NCBI GenBank assembly: GCA_963701095.1
Contig: OY969564.1
Coordinates: 64,001-128,000 of the forward strand
Direction of reading: 5' to 3'
DNA from: an uncultured Methanoregulaceae archaeon
GTDB taxonomy: Archaea; Halobacteriota; Methanomicrobia; Methanomicrobiales; Methanospirillaceae
Length of the DNA: 64,000 bases
Part shown: positions 31,864-62,277 of the stretch, one piece after another
Numbering within the stretch: position 1 is the first letter of the stretch
Layout of the letters: every line of letters begins with the position of its first letter
Notes under the pieces: model-generated
Told to the model about the DNA's origin: nothing
The model's database searches: none
Seen by the model: the letters and a program-made list of their open reading frames with translations, nothing else
Position numbers and translations under genes: made by a program

Positions 31864-31938
31864 TGCTGCTATGGGGATTTGAACCCCAGTCGCGGGCGTG
31901 AAAGGCCCGCATGATTGGCCGGTCTACACTATAGCAGC
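31864..31938 (-). tRNA. tRNA-Glu (TTC)
   Basis: Reverse complement folds as a cloverleaf: acceptor GCTGCTA/TAGCAGC, anticodon loop CTTTCAC, T-loop TTCAAAT; no encoded CCA. Confidence 0.95.
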
Positions 31939-33037: not shown

Positions 33038-34108
33038 ATGATCATTGTGTCTTCCAATACTAAAAAGATACGAAGTGTTCCGCTCTATCTCTCGCTGCTC
33101 GAAAAAGCCGGGCGCTCGCAACAAACTATCAGAACCTACCGGGAAGCATTGCTCTATTTTTCCCGGTTCCTGGACGTGCCGCTTGAAGAGCTGCACAAGC
33201 ACCTGAGCGTTGAGAACCTCCTCGCTTATACCGATAGCGCGGCCCTGAAAGATGCCAGCCAGAACACTCGTCGCATGTGGTTAGCGATCATCCACAAGTA
33301 CATGAAACTGAATGGCGTGGAGTTCGACGAGCTGGAGACTTCCGTATTCAAACTCCGGCGTGACGATGTCAGGCGTGACAAGCCGCTGAAGATTGAGACC
33401 TTGCAGAAAATGATGGATCTTGCGGATGTGCATATGAAAGCATACCTGTCATTCCTCATCTCGACGGGTTGCCGGATTAATGAATCAGCGGAAATTCTGA
33501 TTACGGATATACAAGGCAATAGGGTTACGATACGCCCGGAGATCGCCAAAGGACGACATGGTGGCACAACATTCCTGACATCGGAAGCCCGGGAATACCT
33601 CGACCTGTGGCTGCGTGAGCGGGACCAGTGGATTCAACAGGCAAATGTGCGGACGAATAATATCGGATTGCGCAGACCTCAGGGTGACCAACGGCTCTTT
33701 GCCTGCACATCAAATAATCTCTCGAAACGGTTTCAGAAACTGTATGAGACTGTCGACGGCGAGAGCAGCCCTATTAAGGGCGGAACTCGCAACAAGATCA
33801 CCCCTCACTCGTGTCGCGCATATTTCCGGACACATGCCGTCACCAGCATGGGGATTGACCTGGTTGAAGGTATCATGCGGCATACCGGGTATCTGAATGC
33901 CGCGTATGTCCGCATGTCAGACGATGAACGCGAGAGGTTGTTTCATCTCGGAGAACATGAATTGTACATCACGAGGGCAAGCATACGCAATGAGGAACGG
34001 AAGATCGAGGAGATCAGAAGGGAGCAGGAAGAGAAAATATTGACCCTGGAACGACGGACTAAAATACTGGAAGCCTTACTGAAAATCGATGACTCAAAAA
34101 AGAAATGA
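33038..34108 (+). CDS. Tyrosine recombinase/integrase
   Basis: TGCRINE (R), AKG (K), PHSCR (HxxR), MRH, AAY (Y). Confidence 0.92.
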   Translation: MIIVSSNTKKIRSVPLYLSLLEKAGRSQQTIRTYREALLYFSRFLDVPLEELHKHLSVENLLAYTDSAALKDASQNTRRMWLAIIHKYMKLNGVEFDELETSVFKLRRDDVRRDKPLKIETLQKMMDLADVHMKAYLSFLISTGCRINESAEILITDIQGNRVTIRPEIAKGRHGGTTFLTSEAREYLDLWLRERDQWIQQANVRTNNIGLRRPQGDQRLFACTSNNLSKRFQKLYETVDGESSPIKGGTRNKITPHSCRAYFRTHAVTSMGIDLVEGIMRHTGYLNAAYVRMSDDERERLFHLGEHELYITRASIRNEERKIEEIRREQEEKILTLERRTKILEALLKIDDSKKK

Positions 34109-37869: not shown

Positions 37870-38300
37870 GTTCCAACGGTGGCCCCCGGATTAAGAACGC
37901 GAAGAAAACCGTTATTGATAAGATCACTTTTGCATCGCATATGGAAGCCCGGCGATATATTGAGCTTAAGCGGCTGAAAGCGGCCGGGGTCGTGACTAAG
38001 ATTGATTGCCAGCCGGTATTTATGCTGCAACCTGCGTACCGGAAATGCTGCGATGTGAAATATGATGCCGAAATGACGCCGTTTCTCTATAAAAAAGGCA
38101 TCTGTGAGGTATGCGGGAAGAAGATGCCCGTGGTCAAGGCGATCCGGTATGTTGCCGATTTCCGGGTTACGTATGCAGATGGTCATTTTGAGGTAGAGGA
38201 AGTGAAAGGGTATGCCCAGGAGGTTTGGAGAATCAAGAAGAAAATTTTCGAATTCCGGTACCCGGAGATCACGCTTACAGTAGTAAAGAAGGTGCGGTGA
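37866..38300 (+). CDS. DUF1064-like PD-(D/E)xK nuclease
   Basis: FASHMEARRY, YVADF, EEVKG, KKKIF motifs; Cys-rich insert. Confidence 0.8.
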   Translation: MSSNGGPRIKNAKKTVIDKITFASHMEARRYIELKRLKAAGVVTKIDCQPVFMLQPAYRKCCDVKYDAEMTPFLYKKGICEVCGKKMPVVKAIRYVADFRVTYADGHFEVEEVKGYAQEVWRIKKKIFEFRYPEITLTVVKKVR

Positions 38301-38827
38301 TGACCCACAAACGCAACGGGAATTACAAAACCCTGAAAGATGAATGGGAAACCCCGGACTGGCTCTTTGCATTACTTGACCGGGAGTTTGATTTCCGGGT
38401 GGATGCAGCTGCTCGTAAACACAACACAAAAACCGGACTTTATTTCGAAGACGCACTTTCCGTAGACTGGGCGCATCAAGGGGGCATTGATCCCAGCTAT
38501 TTCCTTAATCCTCCCTACAGTGCCGGGAATATCTCCCGGTTTATGAAGAAAGCCTATGAGGAATCCCTGAAGGGTGCGGTAGTTGTTTGTCTTGTACCGG
38601 TCGCATCGGATACCGGATGGTGGCATACCTACGTGATGAAAGCAGACGAGATCCGGTTCATCAAAGGCCGGGTGAAGTTTATCGGGTACGATGGACAGGG
38701 CAACCCTATCAGGAACTCACCGACGTTCTCATCATGTGTTGTTATTTTTCGGGAAATGTATAAAAAAAGGTTCACTCCGTATATCGGGAAAACCGTCGAG
38801 CGACCCCGGAAGTGTGTGCAGTCATGA
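38300..38827 (+). CDS. Phage DNA N6-adenine methyltransferase (Dam-like)
   Basis: WETP, DAAA, NPPYS, FIKGRVKF motifs. Confidence 0.9.
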   Translation: MTHKRNGNYKTLKDEWETPDWLFALLDREFDFRVDAAARKHNTKTGLYFEDALSVDWAHQGGIDPSYFLNPPYSAGNISRFMKKAYEESLKGAVVVCLVPVASDTGWWHTYVMKADEIRFIKGRVKFIGYDGQGNPIRNSPTFSSCVVIFREMYKKRFTPYIGKTVERPRKCVQS

Positions 38828-42058: not shown

Positions 42059-42595
42059 ATGGAATTCAAGAAAGTCTTCATCAGCGAATTAAAACCTGCG
42101 AAATACAATCCCAGGAAAGACCTTCAGCCAAACGACCCGGAATATCAGCAGATAAAGCGGTCTATCGAAGAGTTCGGGTATGTGGATCCGGTGATTATCA
42201 ACAGCGACAATACGGTTATCGGTGGCCACCAGCGGCTCAAGGTGCTCAAAGAACTTGGCAACGCCCAGATCGATGTCGTCCAGATTGATATTCCCAAAAA
42301 CAAGGAGAAAGCGCTCAACGTCACCCTCAACAAGATTAGCGGCGAGTGGGATATGGACAAGCTCACGTCTCTTCTTGGCGAACTGAAAACGGAAGGGTTG
42401 CTGGATATTACCGGCTTCGATGAAAAAGAGTTCGCGGCATTAAAGGCGAACCTGGAAAAAGTCGATGAACCAAAAGAGGTTCCGTTGAAATCCGCGTTTG
42501 AAGTCATCATCGAATGTCCCAACGAAAGCGAGCAGGAACGAACCTACAATGAGCTCACGGAGGCCGGGTACAAGTGCCGCGTTTTGACATTGTAA
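42059..42595 (+). CDS. ParB/Srx N-terminal domain protein
   Basis: YNPRK, SIEEFG, IGGHQRL, LNKISGEWD motifs. Confidence 0.88.
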   Translation: MEFKKVFISELKPAKYNPRKDLQPNDPEYQQIKRSIEEFGYVDPVIINSDNTVIGGHQRLKVLKELGNAQIDVVQIDIPKNKEKALNVTLNKISGEWDMDKLTSLLGELKTEGLLDITGFDEKEFAALKANLEKVDEPKEVPLKSAFEVIIECPNESEQERTYNELTEAGYKCRVLTL

Positions 42596-43651
42596 AGACC
42601 ACAAAGGCCGATGAAACGTTCAAGGTAGAACAAGTCAAGGGAGCCTTTGACCTGCAAACCTCCACCATCCAGGAACATTTTACCGGAGATATTGCCATTG
42701 AAGGCAAAGACTGGAACATCGGCCTGATCGTTGGGCGGAGCGGGACTGGTAAAACCACTATTGCCCGGGAAGTTTTCGCTAATGGATATATTGAGCCACA
42801 TCAATACGGAACGGCTGCCATTGTAAATGAGATGCCCAACGGCTTGAACTACGCTGATATCACCAAAATGTTCACTGCCGTGGGTTTTTCATCGCCTCCT
42901 TCGTGGCTGAAACCGTATGCCGTACTGAGTAATGGCGAGAAAATGAGGGTCGACCTTGCCCGGGCCCTGCTTGAAGACCGGGACGTGATTGTCTTTGACG
43001 AATACACTTCGGTAGTAGACCGGGACGTTGCCAAAGTGTGTTCTTTGGCGTTGAACAAAGCAATCAGAAACCAAGGTAAGAAGTTCATCGCCGTATCCTG
43101 TCATGATGACATTATCGAATGGCTGCAACCTGATTGGGTGTACGATACCAATCAGCAGACGTTTTCCTTTCGGTCCGGGAAACGTCCTGAAATCACGGTT
43201 GACGTCTTCGACACCCACAGAAACGCAGACCTTTGGCCGTTATTTGGGAAGTATCATTATCTGAATACTGAAGTCAAGAGAGGCACCGACATTTTTGTGG
43301 GCTGCATTAACAACGCCCCGGTAGCCTTCTGCGCTGTGAGGCACTTTCCCCACCCGAAAAATCCCCGGTTAAAGATGATTCACCGGTTGGTGGTCCTCCC
43401 AGATTATCAGGGCATAGGTATAGGAACACGGTTCCTGGGATTCGTGGCTGACCTGTATACAAAGAGGGGATTTGCTGTACACCTGGTCACCTCGCAGGTA
43501 TCGCTTATCAACTCCCTCACAAAACACGGCTGGCGCATGGTCTATTACGGCCACCAGACAAAGCAGGTTGGCGGGCTGGAATGCCTTAAAGAAGCTGACT
43601 AGTACCCGCAGGATTACCGCTTCGTTCGCATATTCCGGGAGGTCGGTGTGA
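42574..43651 (+). CDS. ABC-type ATPase fused to GNAT acetyltransferase (probable extra base near 43585)
   Basis: GRSGTGKT, LSNGE, FDEY; RLVVLPDYQGIGIG acetyl-CoA motif; shifted tail RRITASFAY ends overlapping the terS start. Confidence 0.85.
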
Positions 43652-44103
43652 CCAAGAAGAAACCACCAGCGGCACTCAAGAAACGGGGCCGTAAAAAGAT
43701 CCCGATTGATTACGAAAAAGCGGAGAAATTGGCATCCATAATGTGTACGCAATCAGAAATCGCATCCGTTCTCGGTGTTTCCCTTTCGCAATTGGCTCAC
43801 GATCCCGAATTTTTGCATATCCATAAAAAAGGCATGGAACACGGTAAGGCATCACTGCGCCGTATGCAATATGCCGCTGCGAGTGGTGGAAACCCCACCA
43901 TGCAGATCTGGCTTGGAAAACAGTATCTTGAGCAACGGGATAAGATGGACGTCGAAAACACCATAACAACCGAAGAAGTCCTCGTCCGTGAGCGAGCACT
44001 GATTGAGATAGTCAAGGAGGCTATCCGTGCAGAAGCAGACCCCGAAACTACGCGGAAAATCGTCGCACACATCAAAACCCGCTGCAATCCCGTCAATACG
44101 TGA
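43648..44103 (+). CDS. Terminase small subunit
   Basis: GRKK + HTH (CTQSEIASVLGVS), MQIWLGKQYL; directly upstream of terL. Confidence 0.75.
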   Translation: MTKKKPPAALKKRGRKKIPIDYEKAEKLASIMCTQSEIASVLGVSLSQLAHDPEFLHIHKKGMEHGKASLRRMQYAAASGGNPTMQIWLGKQYLEQRDKMDVENTITTEEVLVRERALIEIVKEAIRAEADPETTRKIVAHIKTRCNPVNT

Positions 44104-45652
44104 TCAACTCAACGATCAGTTCGTCAGCGGTTTTGAACTCGCAAACCCTGTAGTGGATATCCTCACCTTTGCGGAGTCACCGGAGTATCTCGGTCGCAAA
44201 TTGTTTCCATCACAGCAGGAAATCCTCGCCGATTTCTATGACCCCGCGAAACCCTACGAAGAGCTGCTGCTGATTTGCGGCCGTGATTCCACCAAGACGT
44301 TCATGGTCAGTATCATTGCCGCATATACCGCCTATCTGTGGCTGGAGATCCCGGACCCGTATTATCTCTACCAGGGACGGGTCGACCGCGGCAAAGAAGT
44401 CCACATCATCTGCCTTGCGGTCAAGAGCGAACAGGCTACCATTCTGCTGGATGAAATCAAGGCGAAGATTAACACGAGTCCCTATTTCTCCGATAAAATC
44501 GTGTCAATGAACAATTTCGAGATTGTCCTCAACAAGAACCTCCACATCATCGCTGCAACCTCTAACAGTGCGTCCGAGGTCGGGAAGACAGCCATTCTTG
44601 TCCTGTTCGATGAGATAGGAAAATACGGGCAGGAACAGGGTACTAGAGACGGTGAAGAAGTCTATGACAGTCTCACTCCCTCCGTGGGCCGGTTTGCGTC
44701 TAATAGACCGGAGTTCCTGAAACGGTGTGCCGGGGATGCAGGTCTCGAGCGGATTGTCCGGTTCCTGGGCCGGGTTGTGTCGATGTCAACCCCGATGGGA
44801 AAACAGGGTATTCTCTGGCGGATTTACCAGACTGCTTTACGGATGCCCGAGGGTATCCGCATGTACCACCGGCCGACCTGGGAGATGAACCCGAATTACC
44901 CCATAGGGTGTGCGTATCTCGAAGAACAGAAGAAAAAGAATCCGGCGGCGTTTAACCGCGAATATGGCGCGGAATTCGATGAGGCAGTCGATGCCATGTT
45001 TCCCCGTGAGATTGTTGATCGCAACAGCCGGGCATCATCTCCCACGTACGATTACCAGATGGAATATATCGGCGTCCTCGATACGAGCAAACACAAAGAC
45101 GCCTTCGGGTTCGCTATCGGCCACCTGCTTGGGGGGCGGGTCGTCATCGACGTGATAAAGTATTTCTTCCCGGATAAAGGCGTACTGAACTGGAACCACG
45201 TCACAAACGAGATTATACAAATATGCCGCCGATATAGGGTCGATCACCTCCTACACGATGGGTACGAAGGGGAAGCCGTCAAACTGTATTTCAACAACTT
45301 CCTGCTGACAGAAACACCGTTTTCCGGCCAGTATAAGATGCAGATTTACTCGTCACTTGAAGACCGGATGTACCAGAACCAGATCGAGTACCCGGCCGAA
45401 TCCCGGCTGCTTGCGGAGCTCAAAGCGATCCAGAAGAAATGGAACGGCGACAAGTTCACGATCCATCACCCGGACAGCGGGCCGGTAACCACGGATGAAG
45501 GCCCCGACCTGATCGCCAATCTCTCGTATTTCCTGTTTACCCGATTTGTGAAAACCCGGGAGGGTCTCGATGACAGCCGGCCGTCCGGGTGGCCCGATGA
45601 TGATAACGAGGATTGTATTGCATTTATCGCCGGCGGACAGGTGCACTGTTGA
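44027..45652 (+). CDS. Terminase large subunit
   Basis: GRDSTKT Walker A-like, VLFDE Walker B, MSTP, FNREYGAEF, RNase H-like C-terminus. Confidence 0.85.
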   Translation: MQKQTPKLRGKSSHTSKPAAIPSIRDQLNDQFVSGFELANPVVDILTFAESPEYLGRKLFPSQQEILADFYDPAKPYEELLLICGRDSTKTFMVSIIAAYTAYLWLEIPDPYYLYQGRVDRGKEVHIICLAVKSEQATILLDEIKAKINTSPYFSDKIVSMNNFEIVLNKNLHIIAATSNSASEVGKTAILVLFDEIGKYGQEQGTRDGEEVYDSLTPSVGRFASNRPEFLKRCAGDAGLERIVRFLGRVVSMSTPMGKQGILWRIYQTALRMPEGIRMYHRPTWEMNPNYPIGCAYLEEQKKKNPAAFNREYGAEFDEAVDAMFPREIVDRNSRASSPTYDYQMEYIGVLDTSKHKDAFGFAIGHLLGGRVVIDVIKYFFPDKGVLNWNHVTNEIIQICRRYRVDHLLHDGYEGEAVKLYFNNFLLTETPFSGQYKMQIYSSLEDRMYQNQIEYPAESRLLAELKAIQKKWNGDKFTIHHPDSGPVTTDEGPDLIANLSYFLFTRFVKTREGLDDSRPSGWPDDDNEDCIAFIAGGQVHC

Positions 45653-45921: not shown

Positions 45922-46152
45922 TTACGTATCCTCAAGCAGTAAAAAATACTCTTCACGGGAAATCCCGGCAGATTTCAGATTATTCTTGATAATGAAAACA
46001 GGGACATCATCCCAGTCCGGAATGACCAGTGGTCGTTTCGCACCGGGCTTTGAAAAAACATAATGATCGCCTTCAATTCTCCTGCAGGTATAACCGGCAT
46101 GCTCGAAGACCTTACGTAACTTTCTTGCCGGGATCGGGACAATCTTTGGCAT
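45922..46152 (-). CDS. hicA: HicA family toxin
   Basis: G...R.EGDH motif; LVIP...IKNNLKSAGIS. Confidence 0.85.
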   Translation of the reverse strand: MPKIVPIPARKLRKVFEHAGYTCRRIEGDHYVFSKPGAKRPLVIPDWDDVPVFIIKNNLKSAGISREEYFLLLEDT

Positions 46153-46155
46153 TGA

Positions 46156-46419
46156 TCAGAGACTGACTTCTTCTGCCGCAATGATTTTTGGCGGTACATA
46201 CCGTCCATCGTGATTTACGGTATAGTTGACCTCAGAAAGAATCTCGTCGAGCGTTCCCATTTTTTCAGATTCTTCAAGAAACAACCGGATAGCAGTCCTG
46301 AGCATCTCTTTAGCGTTCAGGACGGAATTTCCGCAGCTCGAAAGATCCAGCTCCGGGCAGTACGCAACAAACGTATCCCCTTCCTTAAACACGATCATAT
46401 CGAAATTCATTTTGATCAT
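46156..46419 (-). CDS. hicB: HicB family antitoxin (no DNA-binding domain)
   Basis: FVAYCPEL..SSCG....A..ML..AI. Confidence 0.85.
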   Translation of the reverse strand: MIKMNFDMIVFKEGDTFVAYCPELDLSSCGNSVLNAKEMLRTAIRLFLEESEKMGTLDEILSEVNYTVNHDGRYVPPKIIAAEEVSL

Positions 46420-46609
46420 AGTGTCACCGTTCTCATTCAAACCGGGATTGATTGTCCATATCTTGGCCTTTAGTTATGATAATTCCATCCATGGTCCGCA
46501 TGGATACTGCACTAGTTGATGCTATTTTTTTACTCTTCTGATGGGGGGTTATCGGTTTTCGCCAGACCGTTTCAAGTTTATAATTTTTGACGGAATAACG
46601 AAAACCAGC

Positions 46610-48887: not shown

Positions 48888-51152
48888 TTAGGTTAGTTTT
48901 TTTAGTGCGATTTCCCGATTCTGTTTCGCGATGGCATAATCTGGTTTAATGGCTAGGGCTTTGTCAAAAGATGCAATTGCATCATTAAGTCTACCAAGAC
49001 CACTGAGCGCGACTCCGCGGGTATCCCACACCAAGGCATAATTTGGGTTAAGATTGATTGCGTTGTCACATGAGGTAAGGGCTTCTGTATACCGACCGAG
49101 ATTATTCAGAGCATCCCCTCGGTTGTTCCACGCATCTGGGCTTTTTGGGTAGATTGCAATCGCTTTGTCATAAGAGGCGAGTGCTTCCGAATACCGACCG
49201 AGCATCCCTAGCAAGACTCCACGATTGTACCACACCAGAACATAATTTGGATAGATATCAATTGCCTTGTCATATGAGTCAAGTGCTTCCCTATTTCGGC
49301 CGAGCTTACGTAGTATAATCCCGCGATTGCCCCACGCTTCTGCGATATTAGGGTTGATGGCAATTGCCTTGTCATATGAGTCAAGTGCTTCTGTATGCCG
49401 ACCGAGATTTTTCAGAATATCTCCGCGATTGCCCCACGCTTCTGCGATATTGGGGTTGATGGCAATTGCCTTGTCATATGAGTCAAGTGCTTCTGTATGC
49501 CGACCGAGAATCCCTGACAAGACTCCATGGTTGTAACACGCATCAATGTCTTTGGGGTTTATCGCAAGGATTTTATCATAACATTCTATTGCTTTCTGGA
49601 AGTCCTTCAGATCAGAAAACATTTTTCCCTTGTTTCTCCATACAAGAGCCTCCCTTGGATTTATTTCGAGAGATTTATCATAACATTCTATTCCTTTCTG
49701 AAATTCTCCAAGATTATCTAAAGATTTACCTTTGGCTCCCCATGCTCTATCGTTTCTCGGGTCTATCTCAAGGGCTTTATCAAAACATTTAATTGCTTCC
49801 AGATTTTTCTTCAAAAAGGAAAGAATACCGCCTTTATTAATCCATGAATCAGCCATTCTTGGATCTAACTCAAGCGCTTTATCATAACATTCAAGTGCTT
49901 CATGGACGTTTCCCAGACAACGAAGAGCATATCCTTTATTACTCCAACCAAGAGGATCTTTTGGATTTATTTCAAGAGCTTTGTTGTAGCATTTAATTGC
50001 TTCTGGGTATTTCTTGAGATTATCAAGATTTATGCCCATTTCATACCATATACCGGCCACATTTGGATTTATGTCGAGAGCTTTTTCACAACATTCAATT
50101 GCCTCTTGATATTTTCCTAGATTACTAAATGCGACCGCTTTACTTAGCCAATTAGATCCTGTTAAACTCTGGTCTTCTTCAAAAACAACGTATTTTTCTT
50201 TAAAAAGGATATTATAGAGTGATATTAACTCATTTTTCAAGTCATTAAAATCTGAATATCTATTATCTGGATTTCTCTCAATACATTTCATAATCAATGT
50301 ATCCAGTTGTTCCGGTATCTCAGGATTCAAACTCTTAGGTCGTTCCGGTGTTTTTTCAAAGATCTCATTTAGATCATGGAAGGGTAGTTTTCCTGTTAGC
50401 AACACATAAAGTGTCAATCCAAAAGAATAGATGTCAGATCTCGTTGTCACTGGTCCCTTAAAAGAAAATTTATCTTGAATGTTCCTAGGGAACTGTTCCG
50501 GTGGCATAAATATAGGTGTTCCAATGCCATTTGAGACGTTTATGGAATCCCCCAGCATTTGATCACCCAATACTTTTACCAATCCAAAATCTGTGATTTT
50601 AAAAGAATACCTGGATATAAATCTTGGATCTTGTCGCAGCAATACATTGGTGGGTTTAATATCGCGGTGAATTATCCCATATTTGTGATAGACGTAATCC
50701 ATCCCTGTACAAAATTGAATGGCAAAGTCCATAGCGTTCTTAATATCAATTTTACCAATAAATCGGTCTAGATCTCCTCCGGGGACATATTCTAAAAACA
50801 GTAAAGGTTTACCTTCGACTATTCGAATTGTATTTGCAAAAACAATGTTTGCATGGTGCTCAATTGCAATCCAGACCTCTGCTTCCGCCATGAATCTTTG
50901 GATTGCATTATTATCCCAGAGAAATTTATCCTGAAAAGTTTTAATAGCAATAAGTCCATTCGATTGTAGCTCACGAGCGATATAAACAACACCCATGCCG
51001 CCTTTTTTTATATCAACAATTTCGTAGAGATTCGAAATTTTATAACCTTTCTCCCAAGGTTTCACGGTGGGATGTAAAATATACGTGTTGGGGTTATTGT
51101 TTAAATCAGAGTCATTCTCTGGATTTATTCTAAAATTATAAAGAAATCCCAT
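48888..51152 (-). CDS. Hanks-type Ser/Thr kinase with 12 TPR repeats
   Basis: GGMGVVY, AIK, HRDIKPTN, DFG, PPE, SDIYSFG; 34-aa repeats. Confidence 0.93.
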   Translation of the reverse strand: MGFLYNFRINPENDSDLNNNPNTYILHPTVKPWEKGYKISNLYEIVDIKKGGMGVVYIARELQSNGLIAIKTFQDKFLWDNNAIQRFMAEAEVWIAIEHHANIVFANTIRIVEGKPLLFLEYVPGGDLDRFIGKIDIKNAMDFAIQFCTGMDYVYHKYGIIHRDIKPTNVLLRQDPRFISRYSFKITDFGLVKVLGDQMLGDSINVSNGIGTPIFMPPEQFPRNIQDKFSFKGPVTTRSDIYSFGLTLYVLLTGKLPFHDLNEIFEKTPERPKSLNPEIPEQLDTLIMKCIERNPDNRYSDFNDLKNELISLYNILFKEKYVVFEEDQSLTGSNWLSKAVAFSNLGKYQEAIECCEKALDINPNVAGIWYEMGINLDNLKKYPEAIKCYNKALEINPKDPLGWSNKGYALRCLGNVHEALECYDKALELDPRMADSWINKGGILSFLKKNLEAIKCFDKALEIDPRNDRAWGAKGKSLDNLGEFQKGIECYDKSLEINPREALVWRNKGKMFSDLKDFQKAIECYDKILAINPKDIDACYNHGVLSGILGRHTEALDSYDKAIAINPNIAEAWGNRGDILKNLGRHTEALDSYDKAIAINPNIAEAWGNRGIILRKLGRNREALDSYDKAIDIYPNYVLVWYNRGVLLGMLGRYSEALASYDKAIAIYPKSPDAWNNRGDALNNLGRYTEALTSCDNAINLNPNYALVWDTRGVALSGLGRLNDAIASFDKALAIKPDYAIAKQNREIALKKLT
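49261..49500. repeat. Near-identical 102-bp TPR-coding tandem repeats
   Basis: ATTGCCTTGTCATATGAGTCAAGTGCTTC at 49261, 49363 and 49465. Confidence 0.9.
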
Positions 51153-51338
51153 TATATACTCAAATTTTCATTCTATTTTTTACCTTTATAAGGTTTTTCG
51201 ACTTTTAACATTTTGTACGAAACCTCAACTAATTTTCACCTTAAAAGTGAAGATAAAATGAAAGGTTAGGCAAAATGAATTTATTGTTGTTCACCTGGCT
51301 AAATTTAAAATATTAGTTTAATGGATCCCTTTGCCGTA

Positions 51339-52154
51339 TTAATTTCCAACCATAATAGTTCCATTTTGTTGTTTCACCATCTTTGCCATTTCTGGGTTTA
51401 AACGATATAATTGATTATAAGCATCAAGAAATTCTTTATCGCGGTTTAAATTTTTGAGAGCTGATGCTTTGTTATACCACGCGAAGGTGTCATTTGGATT
51501 TAATTGAATGGCTCTGTCGCATGCAATGAGAGATTCATCATAACGCTTCAGAAAAACAAGGATGCCGCCCCTGTTATGCCATGCAGATGCATCATTTGGA
51601 TTTAATTGAATGGCTCTGTCGCATGCAATGAGAGCTTCTTCCTGACGCTTCAGAAGAAAAAGGACACCGCCTTTCTTCCACCATGAGGTTGCATTATTTG
51701 GAGTGAATTGTAGAGCTTGGTCATGCGCATTCAAAGCTTCTTCAAATTGTTTAAGTACATGACTAAAGATGGCTGCCTTCTCTTGCCACGCAATCAATGC
51801 ATGATCATTATCGGGATTTAATTGAAGGACTCGATTATATGAGTCTAGAGCTTCTTCATGCCGGTTCAAATTATTGAGGATATACCCTCTCATGCACCAT
51901 GAGTCCGTATCATTTGGGTTTAGGTTAAGGGCGTGGTCATATGCCACCAGGCTCCCTTCGTAGCGTTTTAAATCAATAAGCATTCGTCCTTTAAATTTCC
52001 ATAAATCTGATGATTCTGGCTTTAATTGAATCGCCACATCACAAGCAGTAAAGGCATCTAAAAATAATCCCATATTATAGTTTTTAAAGGCAGCATCCAT
52101 CCATTGATTGGCATTTTTTCCCTCAATTGTTTTCTCGGTTGAAGAAAAAACCAT
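51339..52154 (-). CDS. TPR-only protein
   Basis: About seven TPRs; identical 42-bp blocks at 51491 and 51593. Confidence 0.88.
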   Translation of the reverse strand: MVFSSTEKTIEGKNANQWMDAAFKNYNMGLFLDAFTACDVAIQLKPESSDLWKFKGRMLIDLKRYEGSLVAYDHALNLNPNDTDSWCMRGYILNNLNRHEEALDSYNRVLQLNPDNDHALIAWQEKAAIFSHVLKQFEEALNAHDQALQFTPNNATSWWKKGGVLFLLKRQEEALIACDRAIQLNPNDASAWHNRGGILVFLKRYDESLIACDRAIQLNPNDTFAWYNKASALKNLNRDKEFLDAYNQLYRLNPEMAKMVKQQNGTIMVGN

Positions 52155-52463
52155 TATTATCAATCCTATTGTAAATTTGTAACATCTTAATACTTTATTT
52201 AAAAAAACCTAAACAAGGGTGTTCTTTTCTATCCAACATCATCTTATATTCCGTGCAGTACTGCCACTGGATCGCGCTTCAAGGCATTAAGTAAAATCAA
52301 ATCGGGGTACAATTTATCTTATGATTTTTGTCAGAGTTTTTCTGGAAAACAAATTGCCACATGGAATTTTAATTAATATCTATCTTGCGGACTTTGTGTG
52401 GCACATACCTTTTATTATTTAATTCTCAATATACCATATAATTATTAAAAGATGGTGACGTAA

Positions 52464-52889
52464 ATGGGCGTTGTAGTTGAAATTCTAAAGAAAGTAAGAG
52501 ATCCGCTTAATCTCTTATACATGGCAATGCCACGAGTTTCGATGAAACCAATTGGTGGTGGACGTGCAACGTCTACAGAATATGTACCGGATCAACTTGT
52601 ATTTGATGTTCATATATGGAATGACCGAGTGCAACTTTTCAAGGTCGGTGGCGGGATAAATCTCCAGTCATCAAATCTTGCAGTACGAATGATGGTAGAA
52701 CAATTATATCCAATGTATGTCAATATCAGAGAAGTTTGTGATATTGGAGATATAGATGAAATAGAAAAACGTGGGCGGGAATTATCAGATACCGATGATC
52801 CAACCCCATATACAACCGCATTTAACGAGTTTGTAAAATTAAAAGAACGTAGAATCAAAGATTTCGAAGCAGGTGATATACAAGGATAA
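52464..52889 (+). CDS. Hypothetical protein
   Basis: 141-aa ORF with GGTGA RBS, divergent from the TPR gene. Confidence 0.65.
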   Translation: MGVVVEILKKVRDPLNLLYMAMPRVSMKPIGGGRATSTEYVPDQLVFDVHIWNDRVQLFKVGGGINLQSSNLAVRMMVEQLYPMYVNIREVCDIGDIDEIEKRGRELSDTDDPTPYTTAFNEFVKLKERRIKDFEAGDIQG

Positions 52890-53190
52890 CAAACCCAAAT
52901 CCGATAATACCATTTAATTTTGCACTTGCTATCCCCAGTGATGTGATACGGAATTGAATATTTTTTGAGAACCGGGTATTTTCGTTGTGCTATGCGCCAT
53001 AAGCTATGGCGGATATTCTGCCGTCCCTTATGTCCTCGTTCCCATGAGTTTTATATATAGCATAAGATGTACTGACAATTATCCAGTTGACTTTGGACTA
53101 TCTGGCAGCAACATCTTACAATCCGGGCAATCAGTTCCCATACTAAAAGAACAAATAAAGATTAAGTTGATGAAATAGTGGGGAAATAAT

Positions 53191-53240
53191 ATGATAACGC
53201 ACTGTTATAGGTGTGGACACTATACTTTATTGAATTCATG
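53191..53240 (+). pseudogene. 5' fragment of a Zn-finger/TPR gene split by the transposon
   Basis: MITHCYRCGHYTLLNS joins in frame to CPIYPG after 57760. Confidence 0.8.
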
Positions 53241-53372
53241 GGCTTTGCACGTAAACTCGCTTCTGCACGTAAAGTATGAGACTTGCACGTAAAGTGGCGT
53301 ATAGGTAATTTTTAATAAATTTGAACCGATCAATTTGAAAATACTAATAGGAATGAATGGAGAACAACTAGT

Positions 53373-53738
53373 ATGAGCAAAAGGAAAAAGAACGCTATCA
53401 ACGATGATGGAACTGGCGAGTTCCCCTCAAGTGGCGGAGGAATAAGATTGTTTGGGGCGACATCAAGGCATGACTATGAGTTTTTAATAATGGATGGTAT
53501 TAAAAAAGGATTTACTACCACGCCAGAACTTCACAAATTTATAGAGGCTGGATTTAAAGACAAATTTAACGAGATAGATACATCATTTGTTACAATTTAC
53601 TCTACTCGTTGGCAAAAAAACGTTGATTGGAAAAAATATCTTATGAAAAACGATGGTTTAATTGAACAAGATGGGAAACAACTTTCGTTGACTGCTGAGG
53701 GAGTTGCCCGTTATTTACATTTGAGAAAGAATAGATAA
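53373..53738 (+). CDS. Stand-alone Mrr-N-like winged-helix protein
   Basis: RWQKNVDW...MKNDGLIE......LTAEG. Confidence 0.55.
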   Translation: MSKRKKNAINDDGTGEFPSSGGGIRLFGATSRHDYEFLIMDGIKKGFTTTPELHKFIEAGFKDKFNEIDTSFVTIYSTRWQKNVDWKKYLMKNDGLIEQDGKQLSLTAEGVARYLHLRKNR

Positions 53739-53748
53739 TGTAATTTCT

Positions 53749-54705
53749 TTAAAGGCTGCTCAACCAATTGCAGAGAGAGGCGAGTTGATCGGCATCGGTC
53801 ATATTTGCAGCATTTTTCAATGTTTCATTTTGAATCCGTTCCCATATTTCATCTGCCATACGTTGAGATATTGCAGCGGCGATAAAACATATTTCCGGGA
53901 ACGAATCCTCACGAGAAAATTTAGAGCGAATGTCACTCAATGCAGATCGCGTTGTTTTCCAACGTTCATCTGCACCTGCTGGATCGATACCGCCTTTCAA
54001 TTCACCTAATGCAAGAAACAGGGCAGGTGCTTTTTTTGCCCGAGGCAATTCTTCCCGTGAACATTTTATTAAATTAATATCAACATTTTTACCAACTAAC
54101 GGGATTCTAACGTCATAAATCAATGTTCTGTTTTGCCCGTTTTTCATCCAATTCAATCCCTTTACAAGAGGAGTAATATTCGCATCGTTGACATTGGTAT
54201 TTGGGGCGCGCGCCCACTTATCTGTATCACGATTGCACCAATAAAACGGAACACCCGCATTCCTTAAAGACGCTATAACTGCACTGGATACACGTTGTCG
54301 TGCCCAATATCCGACGATGTTGTTCATTGAACCCGCCAAGCTTCCGCCACTAATTAACAAAAAGCGAAATACCAACTCTTCAACAAAATTATTACCGGCC
54401 GGTTCAAGATATTCTCTGATCAATCCTTCGATAGCGGCTGTTTTTGCTTCTTCGGGAATGTTTCCCATGCTTTTATCAGATATTCCAGAAGCGGTGATCA
54501 ATGCGCTCCGTATCCCTCCAATCCCAATCAATTCTTGAGCAGTTCGGACTGTTGATGCTGTAGATTTCAACTGTCGTGCCTCTTCTATATATGGAGAGGC
54601 AATACGACTTTTTTCAAGCGCTTGAGCTACAAACGCAGCCCTGATTTCTTCACGGGTGGTTATAAGACTGGCCGCATTCGGCAAATGAGGTAGATTTGGT
54701 GGCAT
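53749..54705 (-). CDS. Type II restriction endonuclease, AvaI/BsoBI family
   Basis: KNVD and GELKGGIDPAGADE.WKT motifs. Confidence 0.88.
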   Translation of the reverse strand: MPPNLPHLPNAASLITTREEIRAAFVAQALEKSRIASPYIEEARQLKSTASTVRTAQELIGIGGIRSALITASGISDKSMGNIPEEAKTAAIEGLIREYLEPAGNNFVEELVFRFLLISGGSLAGSMNNIVGYWARQRVSSAVIASLRNAGVPFYWCNRDTDKWARAPNTNVNDANITPLVKGLNWMKNGQNRTLIYDVRIPLVGKNVDINLIKCSREELPRAKKAPALFLALGELKGGIDPAGADERWKTTRSALSDIRSKFSREDSFPEICFIAAAISQRMADEIWERIQNETLKNAANMTDADQLASLCNWLSSL

Positions 54706-54746
54706 GATTAAATCTTATTTATGCCACAGTAAAATAAAAAATCATC

Positions 54747-56156
54747 TTATACTTTTTTCCAGCAATAGACACATTTTCTCAATGATGTTCGTCCGTGGGT
54801 TCCCATTTGCTGACTACTATTCCCTTTCCCCGTAGGAAGAACCAATATTTTTTCCACTTTAAACCCAAGATTCTCTGCAATACTCGACAAGATGGTATCA
54901 ACGGAAATATTGACCCCGGCATATCTCACATTGTCGTTTACCATGAACATGTATCCATCAGGTTTTAAAACACGGTGGCACTCTTTGATCACACATGCCA
55001 TCTCATAGAAATATCCACGAACCATACGAGGAATACCGGTGTTATTTAATTTATCCTGCTTTTTCAAATCTTCCAAATATCTCAATATCTCTTGCAAAAC
55101 CTCTTGGTCGTCGGTTATTTTTATGGCGTCTTTCCAGTCAGAATTCATTAAAATGAGATCCTTTGCACGATTCTCAACCGTGCAACTAATCATTTTCTGT
55201 CTCAAATCCCGCAATTTGTATTCATCGGTTCCAAGTAACGCCAGTTCTAGCGCGTATGTTCTCGTATAATCATACCGATTACAGTACGGCGGAGAGGTGA
55301 TAATAGTCTTATATGTGTCATCTTTTAACGTTTGCAAAATTTCAAGACACGATCCCTCATGAAGTATGATATCTCCATTCAGTATTGGCGATGATAGTTC
55401 TATACTAGGTGCAGTGTCAGTAATTATTTCGTTGAGTTTTTCGGTGATGGCACCACCGAATTCCAATATCGTTCCTTTATCAAACACGTTAGAATTTAGT
55501 TGCCCTCTGCCTGATCTTTGATCCCATCGAAGATATTGCCCATCTTTCCGAGTGTAACTGATTGATTCCAGAATACAAAGAAGTGCAAATTTTAAAACAA
55601 ACTGCACTCTTTTATTTTCTTTTGATAGCACATGCAGATAATTTTCTATCGCCAATTGTGTTTCTGGGGGGTACGCATTGTTTGTTATTTTTAATGCAAT
55701 GAATGGAGTTCTTTCCTGTGTTTTTATCCACGGCTTATTTTTTATCCACCGAAGAATTGTTTCACGATCTTTTTTCGTGAACTTTTGTTCCAAGCAGATT
55801 TTAGTCGTTATTATCTGATGTCCAATAGGAAGGAGTTCGATCCCATCCGCATCTAACCCCAATGCACTTGCGGTAAATAATGCAGTCCCACTCCCAGCAA
55901 ACGGATCTAACAATCTCCCCGACCGGATTCTATATTTCTTAAGGAGGTATTCTACGAGAGAGGCCGAAAACGCTTCCTTAAATTTATACCATCTGTAAAC
56001 AGGGCGCTTTTTATTATCTTGGAAACTTACGATCTGACGAGTTAGTTTTTTATCAATTATGATATTGTGTTGAAAATGATTTTCCAATAAGTGATCCATG
56101 TCGTCAATACGAGATATTGATTCTTTTTCTGAAAGAATTCCCATAAGTTCTACCAT
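54747..56156 (-). CDS. DNA methyltransferase (probably m4C), cognate of the REase
   Basis: DPFAGSGT precedes TSPPY; adjacent to the REase. Confidence 0.9.
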   Translation of the reverse strand: MVELMGILSEKESISRIDDMDHLLENHFQHNIIIDKKLTRQIVSFQDNKKRPVYRWYKFKEAFSASLVEYLLKKYRIRSGRLLDPFAGSGTALFTASALGLDADGIELLPIGHQIITTKICLEQKFTKKDRETILRWIKNKPWIKTQERTPFIALKITNNAYPPETQLAIENYLHVLSKENKRVQFVLKFALLCILESISYTRKDGQYLRWDQRSGRGQLNSNVFDKGTILEFGGAITEKLNEIITDTAPSIELSSPILNGDIILHEGSCLEILQTLKDDTYKTIITSPPYCNRYDYTRTYALELALLGTDEYKLRDLRQKMISCTVENRAKDLILMNSDWKDAIKITDDQEVLQEILRYLEDLKKQDKLNNTGIPRMVRGYFYEMACVIKECHRVLKPDGYMFMVNDNVRYAGVNISVDTILSSIAENLGFKVEKILVLPTGKGNSSQQMGTHGRTSLRKCVYCWKKV

Positions 56157-56184
56157 GATTACAACGGCTCTATTAATACGCCTT

Positions 56185-56346
56185 TCATTTTCTTATTCGT
56201 TCCCGATCCCAATACGGGGACTTACATTTCGGATTCGGGCATACCTTCGGGAGTTTGTCCGGGTCTTTGGGATACCATTCGTGCCCACATCTAAGGCACG
56301 TCAATTTCTGATTAATCTCTTTACCGCAATGAGGACATCTCGCCAT
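56185..56346 (-). CDS. 53-aa zinc-finger microprotein
   Basis: MARCPHCGKEINQKLTCLRCGHEWYPKDPDKLPKVCPNPKCKSPYWDRERIRK; GAGGTG RBS; missed by the ORF track. Confidence 0.8.
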   Translation of the reverse strand: MARCPHCGKEINQKLTCLRCGHEWYPKDPDKLPKVCPNPKCKSPYWDRERIRK

Positions 56347-56387
56347 AAAGTAACACCTCTACTGATTGATATAACTTAATCATCCAA

Positions 56388-56451
56388 AGTATATATTCCT
56401 GCCGGTATGTATCCCCTTCGGTATGTATACCGTTAGGTATATATCCCTTAA
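56388..56451. repeat. Four 16-bp-period operator-like repeats
   Basis: Units start AGTATATATTCC, GGTATGTATCCC, GGTATGTATACC, GGTATATATCCC at 56388, 56404, 56420, 56436. Confidence 0.75.
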
Positions 56452-56475
56452 GGGACATAGTATAGGTAGTGAATT

Positions 56476-57717
56476 GTGATGACACAAACCCACGAACCCC
56501 TAACCACCAGCCGCGAAAAGAGGGGGCGAGCAATCGCAGAAAAGAGCGGTCAGATCCAGAAAGTCAAAGATAACCAGTACAAGGTAAGGTCACAGTCCGG
56601 CAACGGTTCCTATGAAATCAAAATCGGCAAGAATGGGGCCGAATGCAGTTGCCCGGATTTCCAGACCCGGCACCTGCCCTGCAAGCATATTCTCGGACTT
56701 CGCTATTACCTAGAAGTGCAGAAGGACACCCCCGAAGGCACTGTAACCGAAAAGGTACGTCTGACTTATTCCCAAGCGTGGAGCGCGTACAATGCTGCAC
56801 AGATCGAAGAAATCAAAATCTTCGATGCTCTGTTGAAGGATTTAGTAAAAGCAATCCCTGAGCCGGAACAGAAGATGGGGCGCCCACGCATACCGATGAG
56901 TGAAAACCTGTTCTGTGCTATTCAGAAGGTTTACTCTCAGTTATCCAGCCGTCGCGCTCACAGCCTCTTCCAGAATGCGGTAGAAAAGAAGCAGATCGAT
57001 CACGCGCCTTACTTCAATGCACCATCGGCCCTGTTCAACAAGCCCGAAATAACACCTATCCTTCAGGAGTTAGTCACGCTATCAGCGTTACCCGTTGCTG
57101 AGCTTGAAACAGACTTTGCGATTGACTCCACGGGATTCCGGACTACAACCTTTAGCGAATACTGTGGAATGAAACACGGGCAGAAGAAGGCTCACCGATG
57201 GATCAAGGCACACATGGCAACCGGCATTAAGACCAACATCGTTACCTGCATCGAAGTCACCGCTGGGAACGCCCACGATTCCACGCAATTCAAGCCCCTC
57301 GTTAAAGACATCTCAATGAATTTTAATATCCATGAAATTTCCGCCGACAAAGCTTACTCATCCCGTGACAATTACGAGGCCGTGAACGCAGTCGGTGGAA
57401 CTGCGTATATTCCGTTCAAGAGCCACGCAACTGGTAAGACTCGTGGTTCCCCCATCTGGAAAAAGATGTACCACTATTTCCAACTGAACAAGGATGAGTT
57501 CATGGAGCACTATCACAAGCGAAGTAACACTGAGTCAACCAACGCGGCCATCAAAAGGAAATTTGGGGAGACACTGAAATCGAAAAACCAGACCGCTCAG
57601 ATCAATGAACTTCTAGCAAAGATTATCGCCTACAATCTGACGGTAGTAATTCATGAGATGTATGAGAATGGGATCTCGCCAGACTTCCTGCACGTAAAGT
57701 CCGGAGCCTGCACGTAA
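56476..57717 (+). CDS. DDE transposase (IS5/IS903-like) with N-terminal SWIM zinc finger
   Basis: CSCPDF...CKH; AIDSTG, ADKAY, YHKRSNTES...K. Confidence 0.9.
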   Translation: MMTQTHEPLTTSREKRGRAIAEKSGQIQKVKDNQYKVRSQSGNGSYEIKIGKNGAECSCPDFQTRHLPCKHILGLRYYLEVQKDTPEGTVTEKVRLTYSQAWSAYNAAQIEEIKIFDALLKDLVKAIPEPEQKMGRPRIPMSENLFCAIQKVYSQLSSRRAHSLFQNAVEKKQIDHAPYFNAPSALFNKPEITPILQELVTLSALPVAELETDFAIDSTGFRTTTFSEYCGMKHGQKKAHRWIKAHMATGIKTNIVTCIEVTAGNAHDSTQFKPLVKDISMNFNIHEISADKAYSSRDNYEAVNAVGGTAYIPFKSHATGKTRGSPIWKKMYHYFQLNKDEFMEHYHKRSNTESTNAAIKRKFGETLKSKNQTAQINELLAKIIAYNLTVVIHEMYENGISPDFLHVKSGACT

Positions 57718-61293: not shown

Positions 61294-62277
61294 ATGCCCG
61301 TTGGTTTATCCGATCTTTATCCCGAATTTACGCAGCTCCTGATCCAGACCCAGTTTTTCCGGATTTACGATATCTATGTACCTGACGATTACGGCCTGTT
61401 TACGCAGGTAGTCCCCTCCACCAAAGAAGCCGAAGTCTACCCGACGATGGGTGCAGTTCCGCAGATGTCGCTTTTTGAAGGGGAACGGAAATTCTCCGGT
61501 ATCGGGAACAAACAGACCTTCATGGTCTTCAACAAGTCCTTCGATACCGGCATCAAGATCCCCCTGACAGTCTTCCAGGACGACCAGTACGGGATCCTGA
61601 CCCAGAAGATCGCCGAGCTTGCCATGGAAGGAAAACGGTTGCCCGTTTCCCTCGTGTACAGTGTCCTCCACAACGGAGCCCAGACCAGCGGGTCCAACTA
61701 TCAGGCCGGTTTTGACGGTCTCCCGCTCTATTCCCAGGACCACCAGGGTGTCGGTTCGGCATTCCAGAGCAATATGCTTGGCGGCACGAACACGCTCAAC
61801 GCTACAAACCTTCAGGAAGTCATCGCAAACATGCGGACCCTGACCGACCAGACCGGCAGGCCGCTGGGGATTATCCCGGACACGCTCATCGTTCCACCAA
61901 TGCTTGAGATTCCCGCCAAGCAGCTACTCCACTCGGCATTCTTCATGTCGGTTGGCACCGCTTCATCGCAGAACACCACCGCGTCAACCCCCGCTGGCGT
62001 CTACAATATCCCAACCAGCAACGAGTTCGGCGGTATCCTGAAGAAAATCATTGTCAACGAATACCTCACGAGCCCGTCCGAATGGCATGTTGCCTGTACC
62101 GGAAGGATGACCAAACCGGTTTTGCTCCAAGAGCGACAGGCACCAATGCTGACGGTCAAGATGGACCCGAACACCAGCGACGACGTGATGAAGGAAAACA
62201 ATGCGTTTGCCTCCATCTATGCACGGTGGGGAGCTGCCCCCGGCAACTGGATGACCGTCTACCAGGGAAGCTCCTGA
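61294..62277 (+). CDS. Major capsid protein, Mu gpT-like
   Basis: VPST..E.Y..MG.VP.M..F.GER, DDQYG, FDG.P.YS.DH, PDTLIVPP.LE motifs. Confidence 0.88.
   Translation: MPVGLSDLYPEFTQLLIQTQFFRIYDIYVPDDYGLFTQVVPSTKEAEVYPTMGAVPQMSLFEGERKFSGIGNKQTFMVFNKSFDTGIKIPLTVFQDDQYGILTQKIAELAMEGKRLPVSLVYSVLHNGAQTSGSNYQAGFDGLPLYSQDHQGVGSAFQSNMLGGTNTLNATNLQEVIANMRTLTDQTGRPLGIIPDTLIVPPMLEIPAKQLLHSAFFMSVGTASSQNTTASTPAGVYNIPTSNEFGGILKKIIVNEYLTSPSEWHVACTGRMTKPVLLQERQAPMLTVKMDPNTSDDVMKENNAFASIYARWGAAPGNWMTVYQGSS

Follow-up and report, generated by a model that had tools for sequence, protein, structure and literature searches.

Genes of the cassette and its provirus

The window, a 64,000-nucleotide stretch of archaeal DNA, carries a provirus with a tRNA-Glu gene (31864-31938), an integrase gene (33038-34108) and a capsid gene (61294-62277). 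Within it lie, in series, genes for a ParB-N protein, for a fusion of an ABC ATPase with a GNAT domain (ABC-GNAT), and for the small and large terminase subunits, terS and terL (Table 1). The viral setting proposed in the preliminary description is borne out by the integrase, capsid and terminase genes, and the Dam-like methylase that it mentioned is indeed present. The window protein retains every ABC catalytic motif together with the acyl-CoA motif A, and a structure model of its N-terminal domain resembles ABC nucleotide-binding domains.

Table 1. Features of the ABC-GNAT module and its surroundings, in window coordinates
Feature	Position	Strand	Support or remark
Dam-like adenine methyltransferase, separate gene, same provirus	38225..38827	+	PF05869 E 4e-30
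ParB-N protein, 178 aa	42059..42595	+	PF02195 E 4e-6; phrog_620 E 6e-45; phrog_28816 on residues 144-176
Constant 22-nt overlap between the ParB and ABC-GNAT genes	42574..42595	+	
ABC-ATPase/GNAT fusion gene, about 358 aa without the extra base	42574..43651	+	PF00005 and PF00583; phrog_11143 E 5e-89
ABC ATPase domain, with Walker A, signature, Walker B and H-loop all intact	42574..43173	+	
mRNA hairpin, 8 bp, 5' of the shift site	43130..43155	+	
Candidate +1 shift site TTT_TCC_TTT_CGG (PA-X-like UCC_UUU_CG)	43162..43173	+	
+1-frame tail, 30 aa ending G-x-x-L-x-x-I-[TI]-I; stop 43262-43264	43169..43264	+	
GNAT domain, with acyl-CoA motif A, invariant HYL and R271	43183..43651	+	PF00583/PF13508; conservation table
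Extra base, most likely an assembly error, truncating the GNAT domain	43597..43597	+	Read contigs without the base
Terminase small subunit (terS)	43648..44103	+	phrog_309 E 1e-9
Terminase large subunit (terL), ORF limits, not necessarily the true start	44027..45652	+	phrog_2 E 2e-21

The ParB-N, ABC-GNAT and terS genes had been described as overlapping in series. The genes and the overlap between the first two stand, but the overlap of the fusion with terS is absent from the sequence as read, in which ABC-GNAT stops at 43602 after 342 aa. The conserved C-terminal motif lies in a different frame in the window, and 18 aligned relatives read on through it. The base at 43597 is missing from the sole contig covering it in the probable source run, X1 (depth 11.7/11.7), and from contigs of two other runs, X2 and X5. 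Because the read contigs of three runs lack this base, it is most likely an assembly error. Once it is discounted, ABC-GNAT has about 358 aa and overlaps the start of terS by 4 nt.

The gene arrangement is not due to chance, as it recurs in two other proviral regions of the genome and in hundreds of loci. Two more intact modules of ParB and ABC-GNAT are found in the same genome (G000:C1:797482-798558, locus L002, and G000:C1:2078352-2079437, locus L003), and the intact ABC-GNAT paralogues have 358 and 361 aa with 86% and 83% identity. Among named genome records, those nearest by ABC-GNAT carry the labels Methanotrichaceae and Methanoregula, from which we take the host to be a methanogen. Of 401 sampled genomes of the order, 2 have a match, the present one included. 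At L002 neither terS nor terL follows the module and the sequence resumes at the gene found after terL in the window, which suggests that the packaging block was deleted there. The third provirus of this genome has its Dam-like methylase in two ORFs (G000:C1:2072792-2073321), either through a real break or an assembly error.

Several other genes surround the module. Upstream of it in the window is an AT-rich DUF4238 gene (PF14022, 39142-40353), at a position where both paralogous proviruses have different cargo genes. After terL come two small genes on the minus strand (45922-46440; 76 and 94 aa), which by their look may be a HicA/HicB-type toxin-antitoxin pair. Low-GC cargo at 48888-57717 includes kinase-TPR and TPR genes, a BsoBI-type endonuclease, an N6/N4 methylase and a DDE transposase.

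The second frame at the ABC/GNAT joint

The examined set of 317 loci combines those of this genome and of six GenBank phages with the yield of three viral scans, two pattern scans and one genome scan. Of these, 308 were parsed and 265 had distinct joints. The protein patterns through which the loci were found lie mostly outside the joint; the loci are still kin and not independent, with 31 representatives at under 60% identity and 9 at under 50%. Fused joints make up 257 of the 265 distinct ones; of the rest, 6 require a -1 shift and 1 a +1 shift, and the last is truncated. In every one of the 257 fused joints the +1 frame stays open for at least 26 codons and ends at one fixed stop, located in the L codon of the GNAT motif HYL. 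The -1 frame is open at 37 of the 257 joints, and nine control windows have an open +1 frame 765 times out of 2309 (33%). Nine unparsed loci comprise three with the same pattern, a distant one that is open for 22 codons and five without a GNAT start in the locus.

The same joints can be considered codon by codon, with background percentages and the control-window total summed from individual counts. The L codon of HYL is YTR in 251/251 cases (background 74%), and a Ser that follows it is AGY in 105/105 (background 39%). In the GC-rich Mu-like loci Y229 is TAT, coding I in the tail, in 69 of 70 (background 23%), and TTT occupies the position coding L of the tail in 68 of 70 GC-rich loci (background 30%). 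As judged from the codons, their choice at the joint serves the second frame, and these comparative sequence data demonstrate selection on the +1 frame. That two products are made throughout the family is, in our view, very likely.

Some relatives have the opposite default. In Lactococcus P335, Streptococcus MismyG and Oenococcus Vinitor-27 the +1 tail is the regular C-terminus of the ABC protein and the GNAT domain needs a -1 shift. The cultured Firmicutes phages (L107:3501-4555, L108:3001-4070, L109:3001-4061) have one -1-shift gene annotated as two genes. The joint of P335 and MismyG reads G_GTT_TTT, and MismyG has an ASCH-domain gene next to the module. A distant locus (L318:5001-6015) departs from the family pattern: it has an A9 run, and its GNAT is read in the +1 frame relative to the ABC, opposite to the other split genes. 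It could be an error or a third arrangement.

The signals at the joint differ between groups. The prfB +1 frameshift follows a rule of a Shine-Dalgarno (SD) sequence, 3 nt and CUU (PMC5009743), and in three bacterial groups an SD-like run, 3 nt and CTT or GTT are found in 56/70, 33/36 and 57/73 joints. The first viral set has an A-run of at least 8 (A10) in 59 of 61 joints, behind a 6-bp hairpin. In the window's clade, CC_TTT_C is kept in 13 of 14 joints although the amino acids vary. The hairpin retains 8/8 pairs in 15/15 clade members, 9-12 nt before the shift site, and one pair is altered on both sides between two subclades, a single compensatory event. Synonymous identity is 0.88 at aa 191-200 and 0.74-0.80 in the tail, versus 0.53 gene-wide, and the three paralogues share an exact match of 33 nt at 43141-43173, the next longest being 17 nt. 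TCC_TTT_CGG behind the hairpin is thus likely to be the shift site of the window, and a +1 shift at 43168-43170 would give a predicted short product of 229 aa.

We hold it likely that two products are made at this site in the present provirus. This reading is weakened because the window's A-site codon, CGG, is not rare (it is the host's commonest Arg codon, at 35%), because the site has no SD 3 nt ahead of it (the prfB layout occurs in 0/14 of the clade's joints, which have no long A-run either) and because one of the 14 joints is without CC_TTT_C. The +1 site of influenza PA-X is UCC_UUU_CGU, and changing CGU to CGG halves an already low shift of about 1.3% (PMC3498833). The relevant passage of a 2016 review gives few well-supported archaeal +1 frameshifts (PMC5009743). 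Our literature search found no paper on recoding at the ABC-GNAT joint, and acetyltransferases are not mentioned in the pertinent passages of the PRFect paper (PMC10274946). As far as we could find, the methanogen-clade signal, the family-wide test of the tail and the two-ABC fusions described below are new here.

Family, partners and substrate of the GNAT

The family is very large, with 7851 matches among 8000 scored candidates and 63 GenBank phage records. The profile phrog_11143 is matched by 62/62 diverse members, in which Walker A is kept in 62, the signature in 62, Walker B in 58, the H-loop in 62 and motif A in 59. In 2013 Iyer, Zhang, Burroughs and Aravind predicted that an ABC ATPase-coupled GNAT acylates a DNA base (PMC7824862, section 3.4.7); as a published prediction, DNA acylation therefore dates from that year. 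A literature search found no experimental test of this family. We know of no experiment, modified nucleoside or shifted peptide for the module.

Of 80 viral loci 79 were parsed, and in all of these ParB and ABC-GNAT overlap by 22 nt, with ATG (77) or GTG (2) as the ABC start codon. By its sequence, this overlap is one of translational coupling. The C-terminal part of ParB is a module of about 35 aa with a predicted beta-alpha-beta pattern. In four groups with sufficient flank, ParB and this module are found in one ORF beside the ABC gene in 8/8, 56/57, 20/22 and 51/67 loci. In the Mu-like group the small module is a separate gene in 69/70 loci, and ParB is found in 0/70. Since it stands alone there, the small module (the adaptor), and not ParB-N, is the constant partner. 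Neither this adaptor nor the dual-coded joint figures in the preliminary description.

A Com zinc finger lies upstream of the cassette in 64 of the 70 Mu-like loci. In Mu itself com and mom come after the tail-fibre and invertase genes, and the presence of Com therefore indicates that the cassette can occupy Mu's mom slot. TerL is close by in 1 of the 21 Mu-like loci having enough flank. In the first viral set TerL is within 3.5 kb in 42/43 loci, and in the window's clade a terS-like gene comes next in 12 of the 13 loci with downstream sequence, with several unrelated types by eye. The placement in Mu-like loci supports, as far as gene order can, DNA marking and not a packaging link, and the packaging-linked role through ParB-N and terminase that had been suggested is not upheld by the 0/70 and 1/21 counts. 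Elsewhere, DNA methylases carry a fused ParB-N of the window's type (phrog_498; PADLOC MTase_II).

A formyltransferase gene directly follows ABC-GNAT in 28/32 and 32/33 loci of two groups, and in 0/10 loci of the window's group and 0/58 and 0/62 of others. Examples of this gene (PF00551) are found in phages of Gordonia (L111:1823-2473), where it is annotated as a tRNA methyltransferase, Pseudomonas (L112:5110-5727) and Burkholderia (L367:5080-5694). No paper on a Com/formyltransferase cassette was found.

The GNAT domain had also been compared to Mom, which in phage Mu carries out a Gly-tRNA-dependent hypermodification of adenine (PMC13219725) with active-site residues H58, Y59 and R111 (PMC13219725, PMC7261163). 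A Mom-type enzyme does not emerge from our comparisons. The profile comparison with Mom scores 13.1 against a shuffle mean of 13.8, and hhalign gives a probability of 0.1-0.2 with a score within those of shuffles, from a Mom alignment that is shallow (relatives 85-100% identical). The Mom family PF25680 is matched by 1 of 62 members (E 0.026). In the structure search the full model matches ABC domains only, and the GNAT-only model has a pLDDT of 42. The HY of the GNAT and R271 fall, by eye, where Mom has its three residues, but dual coding confounds this likeness.

The broader suggestion of a DNA-modifying role fares better than its Mom-type and packaging-linked parts, as it is favoured by the genomic context with Com and by the 2013 prediction. 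We judge it probable that DNA is the substrate of the GNAT, and a little more firmly that acyl-CoA is the donor.

The ABC domain raises the question of how the products would assemble, since ABC domains function as dimers. A single chain combines two ABC domains with one GNAT in 12 of 19 longer homologues (P0126-P0128, P0131-P0134, P0136, P0137, P0139-P0141), and three of the nine longer homologues that were looked up are named to dinoflagellates (Gymnodinium, Amoebophrya). It is suggestive that these fusions fit a short:long heterodimer. They are no proof of one, because soluble ABC proteins often have their ABC domains in tandem. Pairing of the short and long forms as a heterodimer is, we think, somewhat probable. 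The dinoflagellate fusions could possibly be a eukaryotic DNA-modifying descendant. Among other long homologues, P0123 and P0125 have intein/homing-endonuclease inserts near Walker A in the ABC domain, and P0124 has an unlabelled insert of about 430 aa.

Proposed mechanism, alternatives and known systems

We lean, by a little, toward a late-operon cassette that acylates viral DNA with three chains made from two genes. As the sequence shows, a ParB-N protein with a C-terminal adaptor is translationally coupled to the dual-coded ABC-GNAT gene. Most ribosomes would read through the joint to give the 358-aa fusion, and a fraction would shift +1 at UUU_C, or at the preceding UUU_U, to give a 229-aa ATPase that ends in a hydrophobic tail of its own. 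The short and long forms may then assemble into an asymmetric ABC dimer with one GNAT, held with the adaptor. ParB-N would bring this complex to replicated viral DNA. There, ATP binding could make the complex engage the DNA or expose a base, and the GNAT could use an acyl-CoA to acylate an exocyclic amine, either N4 in cytosine or N6 in adenine. The acylated progeny DNA would be shielded from host nucleases. DNA acylation is weakened as a reading because the provirus already has a Dam-like methylase and because the GNAT resembles generic acetyltransferases.

A wider picture is tentative and, to our mind, rather doubtful. It would have an undescribed DNA base acylation extend from archaeal and bacterial viruses to dinoflagellates, performed by an obligately asymmetric machine of two ABC domains, one GNAT and one adaptor, with the subunit ratio set by recoding. 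Viruses would have repeatedly swapped the signal according to the ribosome or polymerase of their host, and the provirus would use a PA-X-type +1 shift on an archaeal ribosome with a 5' hairpin.

Other explanations need to be weighed against DNA acylation by a two-product machine. It is unlikely, though a serious contender, that the machine is as proposed and its GNAT acylates a protein late in infection, such as terminase, portal, a virion protein or a host factor. The canonical motif A of nearly all diverse members would suit this, as would the best matches of the GNAT, which are generic protein and small-molecule acetyltransferases (N-terminal and small-molecule ones at the top of the PDB sequence matches), and phage GNATs that acetylate host RNA polymerase have been described (PMC7824862). 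However, the upstream Com of Mu-like loci and the unrelated terS types leave no single protein partner, and fusions of the same type of ParB-N to DNA methylases point toward DNA. A quite improbable variant keeps the DNA modification and has the +1 tail untranslated in the methanogen lineage, with the joint acting as an RNA structure or pause signal or being a relic. Here the missing SD and long A-run and the common A-site codon have to be considered, the hairpin and T-rich tract could act on transcription, and under synonymous randomisation the frame would be open by chance in 9.5 of the 14 clade joints. It is in fact open to the L-codon stop in 14/14, and the raised synonymous identity at the site and in the tail, like the constancy of CC_TTT_C over varying amino acids, speaks against an untranslated tail.

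Two further alternatives change the chemistry or the nucleic acid. We find it very improbable that the module performs Mom-like chemistry, with an aminoacyl carrier as donor and a free-amine product that is formylated in some lineages. The placement of HY and R271 and the formyltransferase that follows the gene in two groups would be accounted for, but the Mom profile match is not significant, motif A is retained, the overlapping frame partly imposes the conservation of HYL, and the window's own group has no formyltransferase after the gene in its ten loci. Acetylation of tRNA or viral RNA in the manner of TmcA and NAT10 is more remote still. It would share the logic of an NTPase joined to a GNAT, and there are weak matches to TmcA (E 0.007-0.02) and NAT10 (E 0.04-0.07), with PF13718 matched by 6 of 62 members. 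The NTPase is nevertheless an ABC and not the helicase-type domain of TmcA, the matches are confined to motif A with no full match to GNAT_acetyltr_2, and the partners are ParB and Com.

If two products and the adaptor are needed for acylation of viral DNA, codon-optimised or single-gene expression would destroy the signal and could fail. With the three chains known, and with cultured phages that carry them, the 2013 prediction becomes directly testable. A new acyl mark on DNA, if true, would be relevant to virus-host defence among methanogens, and perhaps also to the DNA chemistry of dinoflagellates.

Comparison with known systems can help to place the module. TmcA and NAT10, which are RNA cytidine acetyltransferases, share an NTPase with an acyl-CoA GNAT acting on a nucleobase amine, but have a different NTPase, only motif-level similarity and RNA as substrate. 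From dnaX, too, recoding yields both a short ATPase and a longer form, but its ATPase is of the AAA+ class where ABC-GNAT has an ABC. The short form of ABC-GNAT differs in having a selected 30-aa tail and in the shift into the +1 frame; for the tau and gamma products of dnaX the mechanism and direction vary by lineage (PMC5009743). The bacterial relatives have the same SD, 3-nt and CUU layout as prfB, and their A-site holds a sense codon and not a stop. The window's clade shares UCC_UUU_CG with influenza PA-X, but the window has CGG in place of the rare CGU and the ribosome is archaeal. The system predicted by Iyer and Aravind has the same fusion of ABC and GNAT, and the example given for it is Tenacibaculum phage pT24 (PMC7824862). 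The pT24 record has a full-length match to the window ABC-GNAT at 32% identity. The passage in question (PMC7824862) mentions no recoding, short product or adaptor domain, and the host of the window is archaeal. With com-mom of Mu the module shares the GNAT fold and the position as a late viral gene, and its relatives follow the Com zinc finger at the ends of Mu-like prophages. It differs from com-mom in being without a Mom profile match, in retaining motif A and in requiring, as proposed, an ABC ATPase and an adaptor, and the window copy stands with ParB and without Com.
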